From the NCBI GenBank assembly GCA_001304315.1, contig LJUW01000006.1, positions 2,135 through 66,134 on the forward strand: a stretch of 64,000 nucleotides of DNA, read 5' to 3'. Position 1 is the first letter of the stretch, and every line of letters begins with the position of its first letter. Shown here one piece after another: positions 42,041 to 63,962 of the stretch. The notes beneath the pieces are model-generated. The model was not told the origin of the DNA, did no database searches, and worked only from the letters and a program-made list of their open reading frames with translations. This DNA is from a candidate division Zixibacteria bacterium SM23_73_2. Lineage in GTDB: Bacteria; Zixibacteria; MSB-5A5; SM23-73-2. Position numbers and translations under genes: made by a program.

Positions 42041-42204
42041 TTTTCAAATCAGAGTGATAATGTCATATTCTAAGGATATGGATAAAACAGACGAAAATTA
42101 CCTAAACAAAACTTTTGAGCATTCGTTTAATATAGTAATATTGAAAACGTATTGTTTGGTGGTGCACTTTAAGTTGTCGTATAATCTAAAACTTGTTGAG
42201 GGTT

Positions 42205-43236
42205 ATGGTTTTTGAGGATTTATCTCCCCGGGAAAAAAGCGTATTGGGAGCAGTAATCGAGCATTACGTTGCCACAGCTCAGCCAGTGGGTTCTAAGATA
42301 ATCGTGCATAAATACGATCTAGGAATCTCCTCAGCAACCATTAGAAACACCATGCAGAAACTTGAGGATTTGGGTTTGATCGATCAACCTCACACCTCAG
42401 CCGGAAGGATTCCCACAGATAAGGGATACCGGGTCTACGTGGATTACATTTTAAAGCCGGAGATGCTTTCAGCACCGGAGAGGAAGAAGATAAAAGAAAA
42501 GATAATGGTGGATTATAAGGCAATCGAGGAGCTTTTTGAGCAGACCTCCAAGGTTTTGGGGGACATATCCAAACAATTGGGAGTCAGCCTGGCCCCCAGC
42601 TTCGACAAGGGAATCTTAACTAACATAGATCTGATACCGGTTGCTGAGAAAAAGCTTTTAGTGATTTTAGCGGTAAAGTCGGGTCTGGTTAAAACCATTC
42701 TCTTAGAGGCGGAATCAAGCCTTAAAAGCTTAGCTTTGGAGAAAACCAAAAACATCTTGAACGAAAGGTTATGCGGTTTAACCTTAAAACAGATCGTGGA
42801 TTCCATGGACCAGAGGTTGAAGGATACCTCTTCTGCTGATCCGAAACTTATCAGACTTTTTTTGAACTCAAAGGAGGTCTTGGTTTCATTTCAAAAAGAG
42901 GAGAACATCCATCTGGGCGGAACTCTGAACATAGTAAATCAACCCGAATTTCAAAATCAGGACAAGTTGAGCTCTTTGATCGAGCTACTTGAGGAAAAAA
43001 AGACCTTAGCCGAGCTTTTCTCCCGTAAGGGGATAAGTGAGGGGATTACCATAACCATTGGAAAGGAGCATAAGCACAGTGATTTTAGCTCCCTGAGCCT
43101 GGTAACCTCCGCTTATCAGGCGAAGGACCTCAAGGGTACCATCGGGATAGTGGGACCCAAGAGGATGAAATATGCCAAGCTGGTTTCATTGGTTGATTAC
43201 ACTTCAAAACTGCTCTCAGAGATACTTTCGAGATGA
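42205..43236 (+). CDS. hrcA: Heat-inducible transcription repressor
   Basis: PVGSK, SSATIRNTMQKLEDLG, PHTSAGRIPTDKGYRVYVD and IGIVGPKRMKY motifs. Confidence 0.96.
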   Translation: MVFEDLSPREKSVLGAVIEHYVATAQPVGSKIIVHKYDLGISSATIRNTMQKLEDLGLIDQPHTSAGRIPTDKGYRVYVDYILKPEMLSAPERKKIKEKIMVDYKAIEELFEQTSKVLGDISKQLGVSLAPSFDKGILTNIDLIPVAEKKLLVILAVKSGLVKTILLEAESSLKSLALEKTKNILNERLCGLTLKQIVDSMDQRLKDTSSADPKLIRLFLNSKEVLVSFQKEENIHLGGTLNIVNQPEFQNQDKLSSLIELLEEKKTLAELFSRKGISEGITITIGKEHKHSDFSSLSLVTSAYQAKDLKGTIGIVGPKRMKYAKLVSLVDYTSKLLSEILSR

Positions 43237-43249
43237 AAAGGAGGTGGAG

Positions 43250-43912
43250 GTGAAAAAAGAGGAAAAAAAGAAAAAAGAAATAAAGATCGAATCCTCGGAT
43301 TCAGAGGTTGAAAAAGCTGAAAGTAAAGAAGAAAATGAAGAGGATTCCTCAAAAGAGCTTACCCTGACAGAAGAAACCGAAGAAAAGGAAAAACCAACCA
43401 AGGTTGAGATTCTAAAAGAGAGGCTTCAGAAAAGCGAGAAGGAGTGTAAGGACCTTGAAGATAAACTCTTGCGGTTGGCTGCAGAATTTGATAATTTCAA
43501 AAAAAGAACGACCAAAGAGTTTGATAATCTGATAAAATTCGCTAATCAGGATTTGACACTAAAACTGACTGACGCTCTGGATAATTTCGAAAGAGCTTTG
43601 GATTCTGCAAAAAATTCAACTGATTTCGATAGTTTCCATAGGGGGGTGGAGCTAATCTATACTCATCTAAAAGAAATATTAACCAAAGAAGGATTGGAAG
43701 AAATAAAAACAGTTGGCCAGAAATTCGATCCCAATCTCCACGAGGCGATTTCTCAAGTCGAATCGGATGAATATCCTGAAGGGGTGATCGTACAGGAGAT
43801 TTCCAAAGGATATGTTCTTAAAGATAGAGTGATAAAAGCTCCCAAGGTGATTGTTTCGAGTGGGAAGAAGAGAGAAGAGAAAGAGGAAAGAGAAGAAGAA
43901 AAGGATAAATAG
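43250..43912 (+). CDS. grpE: Nucleotide exchange factor GrpE
   Basis: LRLAAEFDNFKKRT, DNFERAL, FDPNLHEA and KGYVLKDRVIK motifs; GTG at 43250 after aggaggtgg. Confidence 0.95.
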   Translation: MKKEEKKKKEIKIESSDSEVEKAESKEENEEDSSKELTLTEETEEKEKPTKVEILKERLQKSEKECKDLEDKLLRLAAEFDNFKKRTTKEFDNLIKFANQDLTLKLTDALDNFERALDSAKNSTDFDSFHRGVELIYTHLKEILTKEGLEEIKTVGQKFDPNLHEAISQVESDEYPEGVIVQEISKGYVLKDRVIKAPKVIVSSGKKREEKEEREEEKDK

Positions 43913-43927
43913 TAAAATAGATATAGC

Positions 43928-45073
43928 ATGAAATTTAAAAAGGTATCATTTAGTTTTTTATTTTTACTAATCATCTTTGTTCCTGTTAATGATAATCAAG
44001 CAGAAGAAAAAAAGATAGTGTTAAAGGATGATTACTATTATGTAGCTTATCATGATGGAAAGAAAATAAGCATTACCTCATCCCGAACTGGTGGTGCACC
44101 TAATTTGGAGGTGGTTTTTTCTCCAGATAGTGAATATGTAGCTTATATAGCGGTAAACTGTTTGGGTTTTGAGGGGTCGGGGAGGGAGATCTGCTTTATG
44201 AAGGTGGATGGATCTGAGAGAAGGGTCATTTACAGTTCACAATACCCTATCCATGATTTGAACTGGCTAGCCTTTAATCATCATCAATATTTAGTGTTTA
44301 TTCTTGATTTCTATCCTATGGATGTAAAGGGAAAAGTTTGGATTTATGATTTTGAAGCTAAAAAAATGGTTTTTGATACTCTTGGGTTAAGATTGAATAA
44401 TCTTAACGATAAAACATTTTTAGTATGCTTAGATTACATGTGTAGAGAACAAGGTGAATACATACTTGATTTGAGCAAAATCTCTACGCGTTCATATGAA
44501 CTGGATGAATCCAGGGATATATCAATTAGTGAGGATTCGACAAGAATATTTTTGGGGGGAGAAAAAGATACCATTCTATCAGGCGGACTAGGTCATTTAT
44601 TACCTGAATGTTGGCCCGGAGGAACATACAGTGATATGGTTGATGTAGGAACTGATATCTATTGGCATTTCAAGAATGCCTCTTTGTCTCCAAATTGCGA
44701 GTTCATTGCTTTTTCTATGAAAGGAAGATGGTCAAGTTTTAATGGACTATTTGAGATAAGGACGAACAAGGTTTATCCCTTGAGATTTTTTGTCAGCAAA
44801 TTAACCGGAAATCACTACTGGTCTCCTAATAGTAAATATGTTGCTTATGTTGATTATCCAAGTGATACTCAAAAATTGATAGATGTTTTCTCAGTTGATT
44901 CTACTTTGAATTTAAAAGACCCTTTAGTCACTAGGACATTTCGTGTTGAAAGAAGCGACATTCTTGATATTTTGTATTCTCAAAACTCAGATACATTGTA
45001 TTATACAACTCGATTTTTTCAGTTAGGGAGAGAATATACAAATAATTGGAGTATTTATTTGGGAGATAAGTAG
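43928..45073 (+). CDS. Hypothetical secreted protein with TolB/PD40-like repeats
   Basis: Signal peptide; FSPDSEYVAY, LSPNCEFIAF and WSPNSKYVAY repeats; AT-rich. Confidence 0.65.
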   Translation: MKFKKVSFSFLFLLIIFVPVNDNQAEEKKIVLKDDYYYVAYHDGKKISITSSRTGGAPNLEVVFSPDSEYVAYIAVNCLGFEGSGREICFMKVDGSERRVIYSSQYPIHDLNWLAFNHHQYLVFILDFYPMDVKGKVWIYDFEAKKMVFDTLGLRLNNLNDKTFLVCLDYMCREQGEYILDLSKISTRSYELDESRDISISEDSTRIFLGGEKDTILSGGLGHLLPECWPGGTYSDMVDVGTDIYWHFKNASLSPNCEFIAFSMKGRWSSFNGLFEIRTNKVYPLRFFVSKLTGNHYWSPNSKYVAYVDYPSDTQKLIDVFSVDSTLNLKDPLVTRTFRVERSDILDILYSQNSDTLYYTTRFFQLGREYTNNWSIYLGDK

Positions 45074-45229
45074 ATTAAGAGTTGAAAAAAGTTTGATTCA
45101 TGCTAGTAAATTATTATTTGAATTTTTCATAGAAAAAATGTTGTTTTTGTTGGTGCTGGATTTTTAATCCAGCACAATGTCCTATAAAAAGAGTGTTGAA
45201 AAAAAATGAGCTAAAGGAGGATGAGATAA

Positions 45230-47167
45230 ATGGCAAAAGTTATAGGTATCGATTTGGGGACTACTAATTCATGCGTGGCGGTGATGGAGGGTGGGGAAGC
45301 AAAAGTAATTCCTAATGCCGAGGGTTCCAGGACAACTCCCTCGGTGGTGGCTTTCACCAAGACTGGCGAAAGATTGGTGGGTCTGGTTGCCAAGCGTCAA
45401 GCGATAACCAACTCGGAGAATACTGTTTTCTCGATAAAAAGATTTATGGGGAGGCGGCATAACGAAGTACTGGAGGAGGAAAAGCTGGTTCCATTCAAGA
45501 TAGTGGAGGCTCCTAACGGTGATGTCAGGGTAAAGATTCAGGATAAGGATTATTCGCCCCCTGAGATCTCCGCCATGATCTTACAGAATATGAGAAAGAC
45601 AGCAGAGGATTATCTGGGGGAGAAGGTAACCCAGGCGGTGGTTACTGTTCCCGCATATTTCAACGATTCCCAGCGTCAGGCAACCAAGGATGCTGGAAGA
45701 GTCGCTGGTCTTGAGGTTTTAAGAATCATCAACGAACCAACAGCAGCCAGCCTGGCTTATGGATTGGATAAAAAAATAAACGAGAAGATAGCGGTTTTCG
45801 ATCTGGGAGGGGGAACTTTCGACATATCCATTCTGGAACTGGGCGAGGGCGTTTTCGAGGTGAGATCGACCAACGGGGACACCCATCTGGGCGGGGATGA
45901 TCTTGACCAGAGGGTAATCGATTGGATGGCAGAGGAGTTTTTAAAACAGCAGGGTATCGATCTGAGAAAAGATAAGATGGCACTTCAGAGATTGAAAGAG
46001 GCAGCTGAGAAAGCAAAATGCGAGCTTTCAACCACCATGCAGACCAACATTAACCTCCCCTTTGTCACTGCTGATTCCTCCGGTCCCAAGCACCTGGATC
46101 TGGTCTTGACCCGGGCTAAACTGGAGCAGCTGGTTGATGATCTGATCCAGAGAACAGTTGAGCCATGCAAAAGGGCATTGGCAGATGCAAAGCTTTCACC
46201 CTCGGATATAAACGAGGTCATCTTGGTTGGGGGGCAGACCAGGATGCCCAAGGTTCAAGAGGTTGTTGGTGAGCTTTTCGGAAAGGAGCCCCATAGGGGA
46301 GTCAATCCGGACGAGGTGGTTGCCATAGGTGCGGCAATCCAGGCAGGAGTTCTGGCAGGGGAGGTTAAGGACGTTCTTTTATTGGACGTTACCCCACTAT
46401 CTCTGGGAATCGAGACCCTGGGAGGGGTGATGACCAGGCTGATCGAGAGAAACACAACCATTCCCACCAGAAAATCACAGATATTCTCCACCGCTTCTGA
46501 TAATCAACCAGCAGTTTCAATTAATGTTCTGCAGGGTGAAAGGGAGATGGCCATAGATAACAGGACTCTGGGAAGGTTCGATCTGGTGGGTATACCTCCA
46601 GCACCCAGAGGAATTCCTCAGATCGAGGTTGCCTTTGACATCGATGCTAACGGAATCGTTCATGTTTCAGCCAAAGATTTAGGTACGGGAAAAGAACAGA
46701 AGATAAAGATAGAGTCCTCAAGCGGTTTATCCGAGCAGGAGATTGAGAAGATGGTAAAGGATGCCGAGTCTCACTCAGAGGAGGATAAAAAGAAAAAAGC
46801 TTTGATCGAGTCCAGAAACAAAGCTGACCAGATGGTTTATACAACCGAGAAGACCTTGAGAGAATACGGGGATAAGATCTCAGCGGATGAGAAGAAAAAG
46901 GTTGAGGAGGCGATTGAAAAAGTCAAAAATTCGATCAAGGGTGATAATAAGGAGGAGATAGACAGAGCAGTTGAACAGATGCTCTCTGCCTCTCATAAGA
47001 TAGCTGAGGAGATGTACAAGAAGACCACAGCTCAGCAGCAGGAATCCTCTCCACCCCCGGAAGGTGAGAAAGAGAAAGCGAAAGAGGAAAAGAAGGAGGA
47101 GAAGGAGAAGGGTGCGGTGGATGCGGATTATGAGGTGGTGGATGATGAGGAGAAGAAAAAGGAGTAA
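45230..47167 (+). CDS. dnaK: Molecular chaperone DnaK (copy 1)
   Basis: [39 protein letters not shown], linker DVLLLD and C-terminal DADYEVVD motifs. Confidence 0.98.
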
Positions 47168-59545: not shown

Positions 59546-60601
59546 TCAGATTTGGCTTTCTTGTAGGAATTGAGCTATGTTGATGACTTTCACTTCCTTT
59601 TCCTGCTTGAGATGATAAAAGTACAGAGATACGCCTTGCATTCCAACGGCAACGGGATTGTCGATGTACATAAGGATATGTTTTTTTATGTCAATGATGC
59701 GATATATCTGACCAGCAACGGGAAGAACTTTCAGCACTTTTTTTGAATGGGGATCAAGTACGGCTATTGCATAGCTACCCTCGGTTGTCTGGCATGGCAG
59801 GTAAGCACGATCTCCCCGAAAGGTTATCTTGCTGAGTATCCTTCCTATCCCTGGTAGACTGGATGAGGTAATGGTTCTATGGATTATTTTCTTCGAAAGA
59901 TCCATTACTTCGATCCTTGGAACAGAAGGCCTGTTTGGCTTGGTTACCTGGCAAAGGTAAAGGGAATCAGCGTATACGGAGACCCTCCAGTAATAATTTG
60001 TTATTGGCACCCCATATAAAAATTTTATTTTGTCAGTACTGATATCTATTTGATATAGAAAAAGGCTATCCGGCCTGTCCACGCCCGTGGTGGCCAGATA
60101 TACGAATCCATCCCCATAGGTTAAATCAGTTCTTAACCCGTAGATGTTTTTGATTTGGCCCAATAATTCTTTTTTGTAAGTATCGACAATCGAGATTGAG
60201 AATTCCTCCTCGATCATGGGATGGGTAACATAGGCTTTACCATTTGGGGCAATTATGTGGTTATAGGGGCGGAGGGGAAGTTCAACTGTATCTTTGACCT
60301 CTCCACTTTGTGGATCGAATGCTGCCAGACCTTTCTCTCCCACCCGTGCCCAGATGTGACCTTGAGGTGATCGGGCTATTGAAGGTGCCTCGGGATGAAA
60401 AGTATACAAAAGATTTATTCTTCTCTTCTTAGGATCGATCTTGAAGAGCCGTCCGTAGGCAGTGAAAAAATAAGATTCAGCTTCTAAATTTGTCTTCTCC
60501 GAACAGCTGGTTAATAAACAGCTAAAAGCGAAAAGGAGAATTAACTTGATAGCTATTAGATTACGGATTTTTGTTTGTGATTTTCTTTTTTTCGCTGACA
60601 T
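59546..60601 (-). CDS. YncE-like beta-propeller lipoprotein
   Basis: Lipobox LTSC; IAPNGKAYVT and ISIVDT motifs; repeated short beta-strand units. Confidence 0.65.
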   Translation of the reverse strand: MSAKKRKSQTKIRNLIAIKLILLFAFSCLLTSCSEKTNLEAESYFFTAYGRLFKIDPKKRRINLLYTFHPEAPSIARSPQGHIWARVGEKGLAAFDPQSGEVKDTVELPLRPYNHIIAPNGKAYVTHPMIEEEFSISIVDTYKKELLGQIKNIYGLRTDLTYGDGFVYLATTGVDRPDSLFLYQIDISTDKIKFLYGVPITNYYWRVSVYADSLYLCQVTKPNRPSVPRIEVMDLSKKIIHRTITSSSLPGIGRILSKITFRGDRAYLPCQTTEGSYAIAVLDPHSKKVLKVLPVAGQIYRIIDIKKHILMYIDNPVAVGMQGVSLYFYHLKQEKEVKVINIAQFLQESQI

Positions 60602-60866
60602 ATTGGTTGTTTGTACTCTTTATCAAATTACCAAATTACCAATGAAGTTTCATTTTCTATATTTAATTAATTATTCAGATATGTCAAGTCCTTAATGTTT
60701 CGACAAGAAGTCTGATGTGTTTCGAGATTTTTCAGAAACGTTTTTATTTATGTTTTTTTGAATAATGAGGTTTATTTTTAACAGAATTGATTATAAGGAA
60801 TATAATTACTTTATTTGTAGAATGGTGGATTTCATCTAAATTGTATCCAGGATAAAATAATTTTTC

Positions 60867-61056
60867 AATATGCCATTTTGTCTTTGAATATGTCATTATA
60901 ACTTGATAAAATGTCATATAGATATTTAATATGCCATATTGGCAGTATTGATAAATTTTTAAGAATGTCAAATTTTTTAATCACCTTTTTAATTTATTGA
61001 TATAAAAGAGCTTAAAGAGATAAATTCAAAATTAAGGTTTTGGCACATAGTTTGCA
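60867..61056 (+). promoter_or_regulatory. Sigma-54 promoter with IHF site and upstream repeat array
   Basis: TGGCAC-ATAGT-TTGCA at 61041-61056 (GG and GC 12 bp apart); TATCAA-TAAA-TTA on the minus strand at 60990-61002; AAWATGYCAT x4 at 20/21/20 bp spacing. Confidence 0.75.
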
Positions 61057-61091
61057 ATATAATAGGTAAAAATTTAAAAGAGGAGAGTAAA

Positions 61092-61460
61092 ATGAAGTTA
61101 ATAAGATTTTTACCAATGTTTGATTTTGGGAATTCAGAGGATGGGAATGGATACAGTCCTGATATGGATATCTTAGAGACTGATAAGGAGTTTGTGATCG
61201 AGGCTGAGATTCCCGGGGCTTCAAAAGAGGATTTTAAACTGAATGTGGAGGATGATGTTTTGACTCTAGAAGGTGAAAAGAAAAAGGAGAAACAAAGATT
61301 CATATTTAAAGAAAGCAAAGAAGGAAGGTTCAAAAAAAGATTTTCTCTTCCCACTGACGTTGATCAGGATAAGATTAGAGCCCAATTTGAAAATGGGGTT
61401 TTGAGAATCACCATTCCCAAAGCTAAAGTTTTAATACCAAAAGAGATAAACGTTAATTAA
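61092..61460 (+). CDS. Small heat-shock protein (Hsp20), short divergent copy
   Basis: DILETDKEFVIEAEIPG, FSLPTDVDQDKIRAQFENGVLRITIPK and terminal IxV motif. Confidence 0.9.
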   Translation: MKLIRFLPMFDFGNSEDGNGYSPDMDILETDKEFVIEAEIPGASKEDFKLNVEDDVLTLEGEKKKEKQRFIFKESKEGRFKKRFSLPTDVDQDKIRAQFENGVLRITIPKAKVLIPKEINVN

Positions 61461-61484
61461 ACAAAAAAGAAAGGAGGGATCGTT

Positions 61485-61931
61485 ATGGCGATCAGAAGAT
61501 GGAGACCTTTCAGGGACATCATGTCCGTTCAGGACGAGATGAACAGGCTGTTTGACGAGTTCTTCGGCAGGACTCCGGCAAGAGGAGAGGAATATGAGAG
61601 GATGTGGAGTCCCCATGTGGACGTTTCCGAGACCGAAGATAACATCGTAGTTACTGCTGAGGTTCCGGGAATGACCAAGGATGATATCAAGCTTACGGTC
61701 AGGGATAACATACTCACCGTGAGCGGGGAGAAAAAGCACGAGAAAGAGGAGAAGGATGCTAACTATCACCGGATCGAACGCTCCTATGGTTCGTTCTGCC
61801 GTTCCTTTGAGCTTCCCGCCACGGTTCAGTTCGACAAGGTTAAAGCCAGCTATAAAGATGGTATATTAAAGATCAGTCTGCCGAAATCAGAGGAGGTAAA
61901 GCCCAAGGAGATCCCGATCAATATCAGCTGA
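61485..61931 (+). CDS. Small heat-shock protein (Hsp20)
   Basis: WRPFRD, WSPHVDVSETED, YHRIERSYGSFCRSFELP and YKDGILKISLPK motifs. Confidence 0.93.
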   Translation: MAIRRWRPFRDIMSVQDEMNRLFDEFFGRTPARGEEYERMWSPHVDVSETEDNIVVTAEVPGMTKDDIKLTVRDNILTVSGEKKHEKEEKDANYHRIERSYGSFCRSFELPATVQFDKVKASYKDGILKISLPKSEEVKPKEIPINIS

Positions 61932-62057
61932 TTTCAAGCTGAGACAATGACCAGCCCTCCCGCCAGTGGCGGGAGGGTGCTGATTTGTCAAGGATTAAAA
62001 GGAAGATTATGATTTTATTTTTATATATATCAACTATAAAAGAAGGAGGTGGAAATA

Positions 62058-63962
62058 ATGGGTAAAATAATAGGAATAGATTTGGGAACCACTAACTCCT
62101 GCGTTGCGGTTGTTGAAGGGAAAGATCCGGTGGTGATTCCCAATGCCGAGGGTACCAGAACTACACCATCTGTGGTTGCCTTTACCAAAACAGGGGAAAG
62201 GCTTTTAGGACAGGTGGCTAAACGCCAGGCTATCACCAATCCAGATAATACTATCTTCTCCATAAAGAGATTCATGGGCAGGAAATACGATGAGGTTGGT
62301 GAGGAGATGGAGACGGTTCCATTTAAGGTTGTCAGGGGTTCGGGTGGAGATGCCTGGGTTAAGATAAGAGATAAAGAATACTCTCCGCCTGAGATATCGG
62401 CAATGGTTCTGCAGAAGATGAAAAAGACCGCAGAGGATTATCTTGGCCAGAAGGTTACCCAGGCGGTGATCACGGTTCCAGCCTATTTCAACGATTCCCA
62501 GCGTCAGGCAACCAAGGATGCTGGAAGGATTGCGGGCTTGGAGGTTAAGAGGATCATAAACGAACCCACTGCAGCTTCTTTAGCTTATGGATTGGACAAG
62601 AAGAAGGACGAGAAAATAGCTGTTTTTGATCTGGGTGGTGGAACTTTCGACATATCCATTCTTCAATTGGGTGAGGGAGTTTTCGAGGTTATCTCCACCA
62701 ATGGCGATACTCATCTGGGAGGAGATGATTTCGACAAAAGGGTAATCGACTGGATCGTTTCCGAGTTCAAAAAACAGGAGGGTATCGATCTATCAAAGGA
62801 CCCCATGGCTTTGCAGAGATTAAAAGAAGCTGCGGAGAAAGCAAAATGTGAACTCTCGACCACTTTGGAAACTACTATCAACTTGCCTTTCATAACTGCT
62901 GATTCCTCCGGCCCCAAACATCTGAACCTGACCCTGACCAGGGCTAAATTCGAACAGCTGGTGGATGATTTAATCCAGAGAACTGTTGATCCGGTGAAAA
63001 ATGCCTTATCCGATGCTAAATTAGAACCGGATCAGATCGATGAGGTCATTCTGGTTGGTGGAATGACCAGAATGCCCAGGGTTCAGCAGGTGGTAAAGGA
63101 GCTTTTCGGCAAAGAGCCTCATAAAGGGGTCAATCCAGACGAGGTAGTTGCAGTTGGTGCTGCTATTCAGGGTGCGGTTTTATCAGGTGAGGTTAAGGAT
63201 GTACTGCTTCTGGACGTAACTCCGCTTTCCTTAGGTATTGAAACCCTGGGAGGTGTTTTTACCAAGCTGATAGAAAAAAATACAACCATTCCCACCCGGA
63301 AATCGGAGATATTCACCACTGCAGAGGATAGCCAGACCACAGTAGAGATTCACGTTCTTCAGGGTGAGCGCCCCATGGCAATTGATAACAGAACCATCGG
63401 AAGGTTTCACCTGGATGGAATTCCACCCGCGCCCCGGGGTATGCCCCAGATCGAAGTTGCATTCGACATCGATGCCAACGGAATTTTGAATGTTTCGGCC
63501 AAGGACAAAGCCACCGGAAAACAGCAGTCGATCAGAATTGAGGCTTCTTCCGGATTATCCGAGGCTGAGATTCAAAAGATGGTTAATGATGCTGAATCTC
63601 ATTCTGCTGAGGACAAAAGGCGCAGGGAAGAGGTGGATGTAAAAAACCGAGCTGACCAGATGGTTTATGAGACTGAGAAGAACCTGAAGCAATTCGGGGA
63701 TAAGATGGATACAGATTCTAAAGCCAAGGTTGAGGCTGCTGTTTCGAGGGTGAAGGAAGCTTTGAAAAAATCGGATATACAGGAGATCAAATCTTCTACC
63801 GAAGCCTTAACCCAGGTATGGCATCAGGCAGCAGGAAAGATGTATCAGAAGACCACTGGATCTGGACCAACAGGTTCTGCTCAGCCGGGTCCGGAACCTC
63901 AGAAGGAGGATAAAAAGGATAAAGACCAGCCGGTGGATGCAGATTATGAGGTGGTAGATTAA
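62058..63962 (+). CDS. dnaK: Molecular chaperone DnaK (copy 2)
   Basis: Same canonical motifs as copy 1; ATG 62058 after aaggaggtgg. Confidence 0.97.

Follow-up and report, generated by a model that had tools for sequence, protein, structure and literature searches.

The spacer upstream of two small heat-shock genes in the candidate division Zixibacteria bacterium SM23_73_2 very probably holds a working promoter for sigma-54 (RpoN) that is of the classical, enhancer-dependent kind, in which a dyad array, a bend site of the integration host factor (IHF) type and a -24/-12 box would together drive the hsp20 genes. The locus lies in a window of 64,000 nucleotides, the whole stretch of DNA that was analysed (contig C8:2135-66134), from an assembly of 2.26 Mb in 123 contigs (completeness 86%, G+C content 42.5%). 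All the regulatory elements are contained in a 490-bp AT-rich spacer between a divergently oriented gene of 351 amino acids (aa; 59546-60601, minus strand) and hsp20-1 (61092-61460, plus strand; 122 aa, PF00011), which is the first gene behind the promoter. On the same strand follow hsp20-2 (61485-61931; 148 aa, PF00011), the copy retained in every relative, and dnaK2 (62058-63962; 634 aa, Hsp70 by Pfam). A first-pass annotation of this DNA had proposed that a sigma-54 promoter is preceded by activator sites, with a site of the IHF type between the two, and the sequence and spacing of the promoter and its activator sites are indeed conserved across the order and beyond.

The promoter box TGGCACATAGTTTGCA (61041-61056, plus strand) is a perfect match to TGGCAC-N5-TTGCA; within TGGCAC-N5-TTGCW, exactly 10 bp separate the GG from the GC doublet, and transcription is predicted to start near 61067. 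The box stands 35 nt 5' of the ATG at 61092, which is led by the ribosome-binding site GAGGAG (61080-61085, plus strand), in agreement with the coordinates and the distance of about 35 bp annotated before. Matches without any mismatch number one in the 64-kb window and nine in the 2.26-Mb assembly; eight of these nine are visibly just 5' of a start codon, which in most cases is accompanied by a Shine-Dalgarno sequence. The proposed check of the box in relatives was made on the DNA 5' of the orthologous dnaK from 19 relatives, 14 of whose loci include enough upstream DNA and show hsp20 or hsp20-hsp20 before dnaK. In 13 of these 14 loci, which come from three families, a box is kept at the orthologous place 5' of the first hsp20, the exception being locus L021. 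Elsewhere in the assembly, sigma-54 boxes were seen on contigs C6, C12, C17, C47, C55, C65 and C115. Where a downstream gene is called, most of these other boxes precede products that start with signal-peptide, lipoprotein or pilin-like sequences, and a gene for a 600-aa activator (C115:47961-49763) is found just upstream of one of them (C115:47687).

Upstream of the box, four repeats of the form AAWATGYCAT had been annotated, and they are present at 60867, 60887, 60908 and 60928 with spacings of 20, 21 and 20 bp. They are the only four matches in the window and all fall inside 70 bp (60867-60937), compared with about 1.05 expected by chance, and an independent repeat search of the window also recovers the 20-nt repeat units. 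In the relatives, the element common to the DNA 5' of the box is a 13-bp palindrome, TGYCA-N3-TGRCA. Since the repeats correspond to the left halves of these dyads, the array is a classical palindromic enhancer and not the new direct-repeat binding motif first suggested. In relatives the sites are kept in the form of two-sided dyads.

All four dyads of this genome lie on the plus strand. Dyads 1 (TGCCATTTTGTCT, 60871-60883), 2 (TGTCATTATAACT, 60891-60903) and 3 (TGTCATATAGATA, 60912-60924) retain the left half, TGYCAT, and carry two mismatches each to TGRCA in the right half; they start 170, 150 and 129 bp before the start of the box. Dyad 4 (TGCCATATTGGCA, 60932-60944), 109 bp before the box start, is a perfect TGYCA-N3-TGRCA palindrome and the counterpart of the conserved promoter-proximal site of the relatives. 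The weaker fifth repeat annotated at 60966 does not belong to the series: it is a lone TGTCA, 34 bp from the fourth repeat and out of register, and the relatives have no conserved site at this position. Two further perfect dyads of the assembly (on C41 and C93) were considered as enhancer targets and rejected, both being inside genes, and a relaxed scan of this assembly for dyad and box in combination returned hsp20 only.

A typical relative has three dyads, starting 131, 111 and 91 bp before the box, compared with four at -170, -150, -129 and -109 in this genome. When 33 distinct loci were anchored on the proximal dyad, the mean number of mismatches to the dyad was 3.6 at an offset of -20 and 3.9 at -40, whereas six of the seven out-of-register offsets tested gave means of 7.3-8.4 and the remaining one, -41, gave 6.3. 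The distance from dyad to box is also nearly constant, with values of -89 to -93 in 19 of the 33 loci, from several phyla. With respect to the predicted start, the dyad centres of most relatives are near -112, -132 and -152, and the dyads are 18 bp further upstream here. The 20-bp period, about two helical turns, bears out the earlier remark that the sites occupy the same helical face. An enhancer is expected to comprise more than one dyad-symmetric site, phased on the helix, at some 80-160 bp 5' of the promoter, and the array agrees with this.

Between enhancer and promoter, the IHF-type bend site TAATTTATTGATA (60990-61002) reads on the minus strand as its reverse complement TATCAATAAATTA, an exact WATCAA-N4-TTR, as had been reported for these positions. 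It is the counterpart of a second conserved block, TAA-N4-TTGaw-ATAcAA..aTTA, which in 19 loci occupies positions -42 to -17 relative to the box, the match in the window being located 9 bp further upstream. Many of the relatives' copies of this block read TTGAAA or TTGGAA, not TTGATW, and their bend site is near -45 to -70 from the predicted start. A second IHF-type site at 60946-60957 was ruled out on reading, as it has no YAA/TTR partner. Judged by sequence, the spacing of dyads, bend site and box is the textbook geometry of enhancer-dependent promoters.

The combination of enhancer and box is also specific in its distribution. A composite pattern, TGYCA-N3-TGRCA-N(50-100)-TGGCAY-N5-TTGC, has matches in 26 of the 285 Zixibacteria genomes, in most of them a single one, and the reversed pattern used as a control gave one match. 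The strict pattern misses genomes with degenerate dyads, so that 26 of 285 is a lower bound. All 28 composite matches are accounted for (13 newly read, 15 coinciding with loci already read), and every one, including those in four other families, precedes hsp20 or hsp20-dnaK, with four short loci where the contig held only the start of hsp20 or nothing past the promoter. Two contigs of one relative (loci L120 and L140; G011, C210 and C266) share the same initial 80 bases of the enhancer-promoter match, which is probably an assembly duplicate.

Outside the Zixibacteria, the composite lies directly 5' of dnaK in one KSB1 genome. Among 401 evenly sampled Bacteroidota genomes there are seven composite matches and three control matches; five of the seven precede dnaK (three) or hsp20 (two), and one of the Bacteroidota loci (L147) again has three dyads 20 bp apart. 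When one mismatch was allowed in 12 genomes, a second hsp20 and the gene of an M50-family protease were added. The latter, in a KSB1 genome, encodes a membrane protease and has the one-mismatch enhancer and box in front of it (L241; G292, C4:643286-643381); a DnaJ-like gene starts about 190 bp after it, which hints at a wider proteostasis regulon in that genome. As the composite stands before chaperone genes in Zixibacteria, KSB1 and Bacteroidota, the module is old, devoted to chaperones and common to phyla of the Fibrobacterota-Chlorobiota-Bacteroidota (FCB) superphylum. At the same time it is restricted to certain lineages: across 80 loci with hsp20 relatives from diverse bacteria, the box occurs only in Zixibacteria and a few Calditrichota or other genomes, and none was found before the hsp20 of Nitrospira, Desulfobacterota, WOR-3 and others. 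A sigma-54 regulon extending to groESL, clpB, lon, htpG and grpE-dnaJ was not seen either, box and dyad being combined only at hsp20 in the assembled genome, from which the groESL upstream region is absent; the clpC-like gene of this genome has a promoter of the sigma-70 type.

The extent of the transcription unit needs to be considered separately. Pfam confirms the annotated genes as two Hsp20 and one Hsp70/DnaK, and the three genes share their strand and a conserved order, as expected of the hsp20-hsp20-dnaK2 operon that had been proposed. What does not fit a single operon is the spacer before dnaK2, in which both a terminator-like and a promoter-like element were found: a GC-rich hairpin after hsp20-2 (61954-61978, plus strand; 11 pairs, nine of them G-C, with a weak T tail) and a sigma-70-like promoter, TTGTCA-17-TATGAT (61985-62013, plus strand), 44 nt before the start of dnaK2. 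A strong hairpin 3' of hsp20-2 is present in all 13 relatives with a readable spacer; in six, all of family f3, it begins right at the hsp20-2 stop codon, and it takes the form GGGGAGGAGA-loop-TCTCCTCCCC in that family. The hairpin is often without a T tract (loci L016-L032), and the one at 61954-61978 may be a terminator, an attenuator or an mRNA-stabilising 3' end. The spacer from hsp20-2 to dnaK2 measures 98-709 bp in relatives. A perfect TTGACA-16-TATAAT stands just before dnaK2 in two relatives of family f2 (L018 and L022), and a similar element does so in three more (L020, L027 and L028). Given hairpin and sigma-70-like element, only the hsp20 genes can be regarded as secure targets of sigma-54. 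On the other hand, dnaK2 and dnaJ (C8:66538-67641, about 440 bp beyond dnaK2 and outside the window) are constant neighbours that probably have a promoter of their own and to which sigma-54 transcripts would extend by read-through only. In other lineages the module stands directly before dnaK, and the DnaK proteins encoded there are 2-7 percentage points closer to DnaK2 than to DnaK1, the product of a second dnaK in the window (over 250-480 aligned residues). This is a weak hint that DnaK2 may be the ancestral sigma-54-linked copy.

Two other explanations of the array have to be weighed against an enhancer-dependent promoter. In an explanation that follows the first-pass annotation, four or five AAWATGYCAT direct repeats would form a new type of enhancer, bound head to tail by a signal-sensing activator and serving a single hsp20-hsp20-dnaK2 operon. 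What is conserved of each site here does point in one orientation throughout, at intervals of 20, 21 and 20 bp, as such an arrangement would require. Nevertheless, the fourth site is itself a perfect palindrome, the sites of the relatives are two-sided and likewise 20 bp apart, the fifth repeat neither keeps the register nor is conserved, and hairpin and promoter-like site part dnaK2 from hsp20, all of which makes this explanation very improbable. The dyads could also be operators for a repressor, or for another regulator, of a sigma-70 promoter, unrelated to a box that might be silent. Heat-shock genes are often under repressors, and the AT-rich spacer contains 13 sigma-70-like matches against 6.5 expected, among them the near-consensus TTAACA-17-TATAAT (11/12 positions; 60778-60806, plus strand) about 260 bp 5' of the sigma-54 box. 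That match may be due to chance in AT-rich DNA, and on reading, without a formal scan, it was not seen in the upstream sequence of the same genus. Moreover, operators would leave unexplained why the dyads keep a nearly fixed distance from the box in 19 of 33 loci and why dyad and box co-occur once per genome, and a silent box would not remain perfect across three families; we give this alternative hardly any credence.

The activator that would bind the dyads was sought among the enhancer-binding proteins, eight genes for which are encoded in the assembly. No signature of such a protein was found beside the operon in about 50 loci, one Eisenbacteria locus included. The genes of this assembly were compared with 79 enhancer-binding-protein genes from seven module-bearing genomes (four of Bacteroidota, one of unknown phylum and two of Zixibacteria, of which one belongs to the same genus and the other to another family), and only one group consists of reciprocal best hits in all six of the other genomes sampled. 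Counting also the reference genome G001 and the truncated copy in this assembly, this family is present in eight module-bearing genomes. The copy here (C64:2-784) is cut by the contig end and is 77% identical to the protein of the same genus. The family has a strongly conserved Fis-type helix-turn-helix (HTH; ...GNRRKAAxxLGIxERTLYRK...), and the linker that joins its AAA+ domain to this HTH, LPV..K..AERELIYRALL, is conserved as well. It has no N-terminal domain in Bacteroidota and in the genome of unknown phylum, and the protein of the same genus has only a sub-threshold receiver domain (28 bits, compared with a cut-off of 30.2). In three Zixibacteria genomes, the candidate directly follows a gene whose product has a very basic tail, a putative RNase R on reading of the sequence, and in three of the four Bacteroidota (G404, G580 and G632) it comes after a miaB-like and a SPOR-like gene, both named from sequence only; the loci of the family are C64:2-3040 and L192, L235, L213, L186 and L171.

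Co-occurrence with the module points to this family as the most likely activator, and the chance that it is the cognate one, sensor-less as it is in Bacteroidota, may be put at about even. Whether the activator is signal-responsive, as had been supposed, is uncertain, the candidate having no sensor in other phyla and a degenerate receiver in Zixibacteria. Alternatively, the activator might be an ordinary two-component regulator of the NtrC type, for example the product of C35:1782-3137, with a histidine kinase as the source of its signal. Consistent with this, six of the eight enhancer-binding proteins of this genome have receiver domains, the HTH of the C35 protein is 57-64% identical to that of proteins in two module-bearing Bacteroidota genomes, and an HTH of this type is strongly conserved in G000, G001, G404 and G632. 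Yet no ortholog of the C35 type was found in G245, G291, G538 and G580, which carry the same enhancer and in all four of which the C64 family is the reciprocal best hit. Thus, a regulator of the C35 type is an unlikely choice.

Several observations weigh against an enhancer-driven sigma-54 promoter in this genome or against parts of that interpretation. The gene for sigma-54 itself, rpoN (PF04552, PF04963), was not found in the 86%-complete assembly, also by tblastn with the protein of the same genus, and the same holds for any gene of the HU/IHF family (PF00216), which was likewise sought by tblastn with same-genus proteins. All 30 relatives examined, the same genus included, have rpoN, and HU/IHF-family genes are present in 20 of 20 relatives, with two each in 19. 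In the same genus, one of the two proteins of this DNA-bending family (DNABII) has IHF alpha/beta as its best match, with a score that stays under the NCBIfam cut-offs (98 vs 111 bits), and the other is HU-like. The missing rpoN and HU/IHF genes probably reflect assembly gaps and not true absence, and several core regulators seem to be encoded in the 14% that is unassembled. The dyads themselves are degenerate in the right half in three of four cases here, and one genome (G029) is without a clear module. At its locus L021 (C1:2117100-2120100), this GC-rich relative has hsp20-dnaK with no recognisable dyads and a one-mismatch box only, inside the upstream gene, and the module may have been lost or remodelled there. 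The hairpin and the sigma-70-like promoter before dnaK2 speak against a simple three-gene operon. Finally, the candidate activator is never encoded next to its target, and its link to the module is a co-occurrence in eight genomes only.

Even so, an enhancer-dependent sigma-54 promoter of the hsp20 genes is the interpretation that we favour. The elements, their conservation and their fixed spacing are visible in the sequences, whereas binding and looping, the signal for induction and the choice of activator are inferred. In this scheme, dimers of a single AAA+ activator of the enhancer-binding type would bind the TGYCA-N3-TGRCA array, whose dyads are two helical turns apart and number four here (60871-60944), the promoter-proximal one alone being perfect. 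An IHF-like protein would bend the DNA at 60990-61002, and the activator hexamer would then use adenosine triphosphate (ATP) to open the closed complex of the sigma-54 holoenzyme at 61041-61056, with transcription proceeding from near 61067. Under this scheme, dnaK2, and possibly dnaJ, would receive sigma-54 transcripts only through read-through of the hairpin at 61954-61978. The module would be part of a sigma-54-run chaperone regulon common to the FCB group, represented here by Zixibacteria, KSB1 and Bacteroidota, and would work in parallel with hrcA-grpE-dnaK1, the HrcA-type operon that this genome also has.

A broader conjecture can be formulated tentatively, and we consider it possible rather than probable. 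It holds that one family of enhancer-binding proteins acts, via TGYCA-N3-TGRCA arrays, as the master positive regulator of hsp20/dnaK-type chaperones across Zixibacteria, KSB1, Bacteroidota and neighbouring phyla. Since the candidate family lacks a sensor, its switching would occur in trans, and unfolded proteins might bring this about by titrating free DnaK/DnaJ or Hsp20. In Zixibacteria this circuit would run beside the HrcA circuit, an arrangement that the duplication of dnaK would have enabled. If true, the titration circuit would be for sigma-54 what the feedback loops with DnaK are for sigma-32 and HspR.

The other chaperone locus of the window, hrcA, grpE, a gene of 381 aa and dnaK1 (42193-47167, plus strand), is a classical operon of the repressor type. 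In particular, dnaK1 (45230-47167) lies behind hrcA and grpE, and its product is 74% identical to that of dnaK2. The hsp20-hsp20-dnaK2 genes are therefore a second chaperone set, as the first-pass annotation had recognised: the dnaK1 copy belongs to an hrcA-grpE-X-dnaK operon in the same window, and both paralogs are retained across the order. The 381-aa gene between grpE and dnaK1 (43928-45073) has no Pfam match. A scan of the whole assembly for CIRCE, the HrcA operator, returned nothing at three or fewer mismatches, so that this lineage may have a divergent HrcA operator. Matches to HAIR, the HspR operator, were obtained in the scan of the whole assembly and set aside, as they look like chance. 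An Rfam scan of 60550-62100 gave nothing relevant, and in particular no RNA thermometer of the ROSE type.

In textbook accounts, heat-shock genes are controlled by sigma-32 or by repressors such as HrcA, HspR and CtsR. Classical enhancer-dependent promoters are found instead at Klebsiella nifH (NifA sites and IHF), E. coli pspA (PspF sites and IHF) and glnAp2 (NtrC). The locus described here resembles these in having dyad activator sites about 100-160 bp 5' of the start, several of them phased on one face of the helix, then an IHF-type site and then a -24/-12 box. It differs from them in its targets, which are cytoplasmic chaperones, in the sequence of the dyad and in the three to four sites that follow a strict 20-bp period. 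A small heat-shock gene with a sigma-54 promoter is also known in E. coli, where the promoter of ibpB is minor and internal and acts beside sigma-32 control; in the present case, by contrast, it is the main conserved promoter and has a dedicated enhancer.

Sigma-54 control of dnaK has been regarded as unusual, and the first-pass annotation started from this premise, which is dated. Indeed, in Flavobacterium psychrophilum, the passages at hand of a study with mapped transcription starts describe sigma-54 promoters (motif SM4) at groESL, lon, dnaK, grpE-dnaJ, htpG and clpB, and note three enhancer-binding proteins, none of which is assigned to these promoters (Guerin et al. 2021, PMC9723704). 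With sigma-54 chaperone promoters already published for that species, the layout as such is known and the present locus is a solid new example of it. The two cases share an origin in the FCB group and -24/-12 promoters, mapped in Flavobacterium, before dnaK or other chaperone genes. They differ in that the Flavobacterium regulon, as given in those passages, also has groESL, grpE-dnaJ, htpG, lon and clpB, whereas in the assembled part of this genome the hsp20(-dnaK2) genes alone carry the module and a separate hrcA-grpE-dnaK1 operon is present. The same passages of PMC9723704 name no enhancer motif and no activator.

A survey published in PLoS One in 2025 predicts, in the passages at hand, sigma-54 promoters at genes for IbpA/Hsp20, DnaK, DnaJ, GrpE and GroEL/ES in Bacteroidota and Planctomycetota, and cites Sabree 2009 for sigma-54-dependent grpE/groES (PMC12316311). 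Like the present work, it is thus a computational finding of chaperone sigma-54 promoters outside the Proteobacteria. Zixibacteria are not mentioned in it, its passages at hand contain no analysis of enhancers or activators, and a literature search returned no paper linking Zixibacteria with sigma-54. What is added here to the passages of PMC9723704 and PMC12316311 is the sequence and geometry of the enhancer, the restriction to hsp20(-dnaK2) in this genome, the coexistence with an HrcA-type dnaK1 operon and a candidate for the activator.

Collectively, these data provide a comparative case in which a large and poorly studied group of bacteria would turn on chaperone genes via sigma-54 and an ATP-driven activator. 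They also offer handles for experiments, namely the TGYCA-N3-TGRCA enhancer, its strict 20-bp phasing and distance from the promoter, and a short list of activator candidates. One genome retains both types of control, each on its own copy of dnaK, and a tractable Flavobacterium carrying the module could show how a sigma-54 activator senses protein damage.

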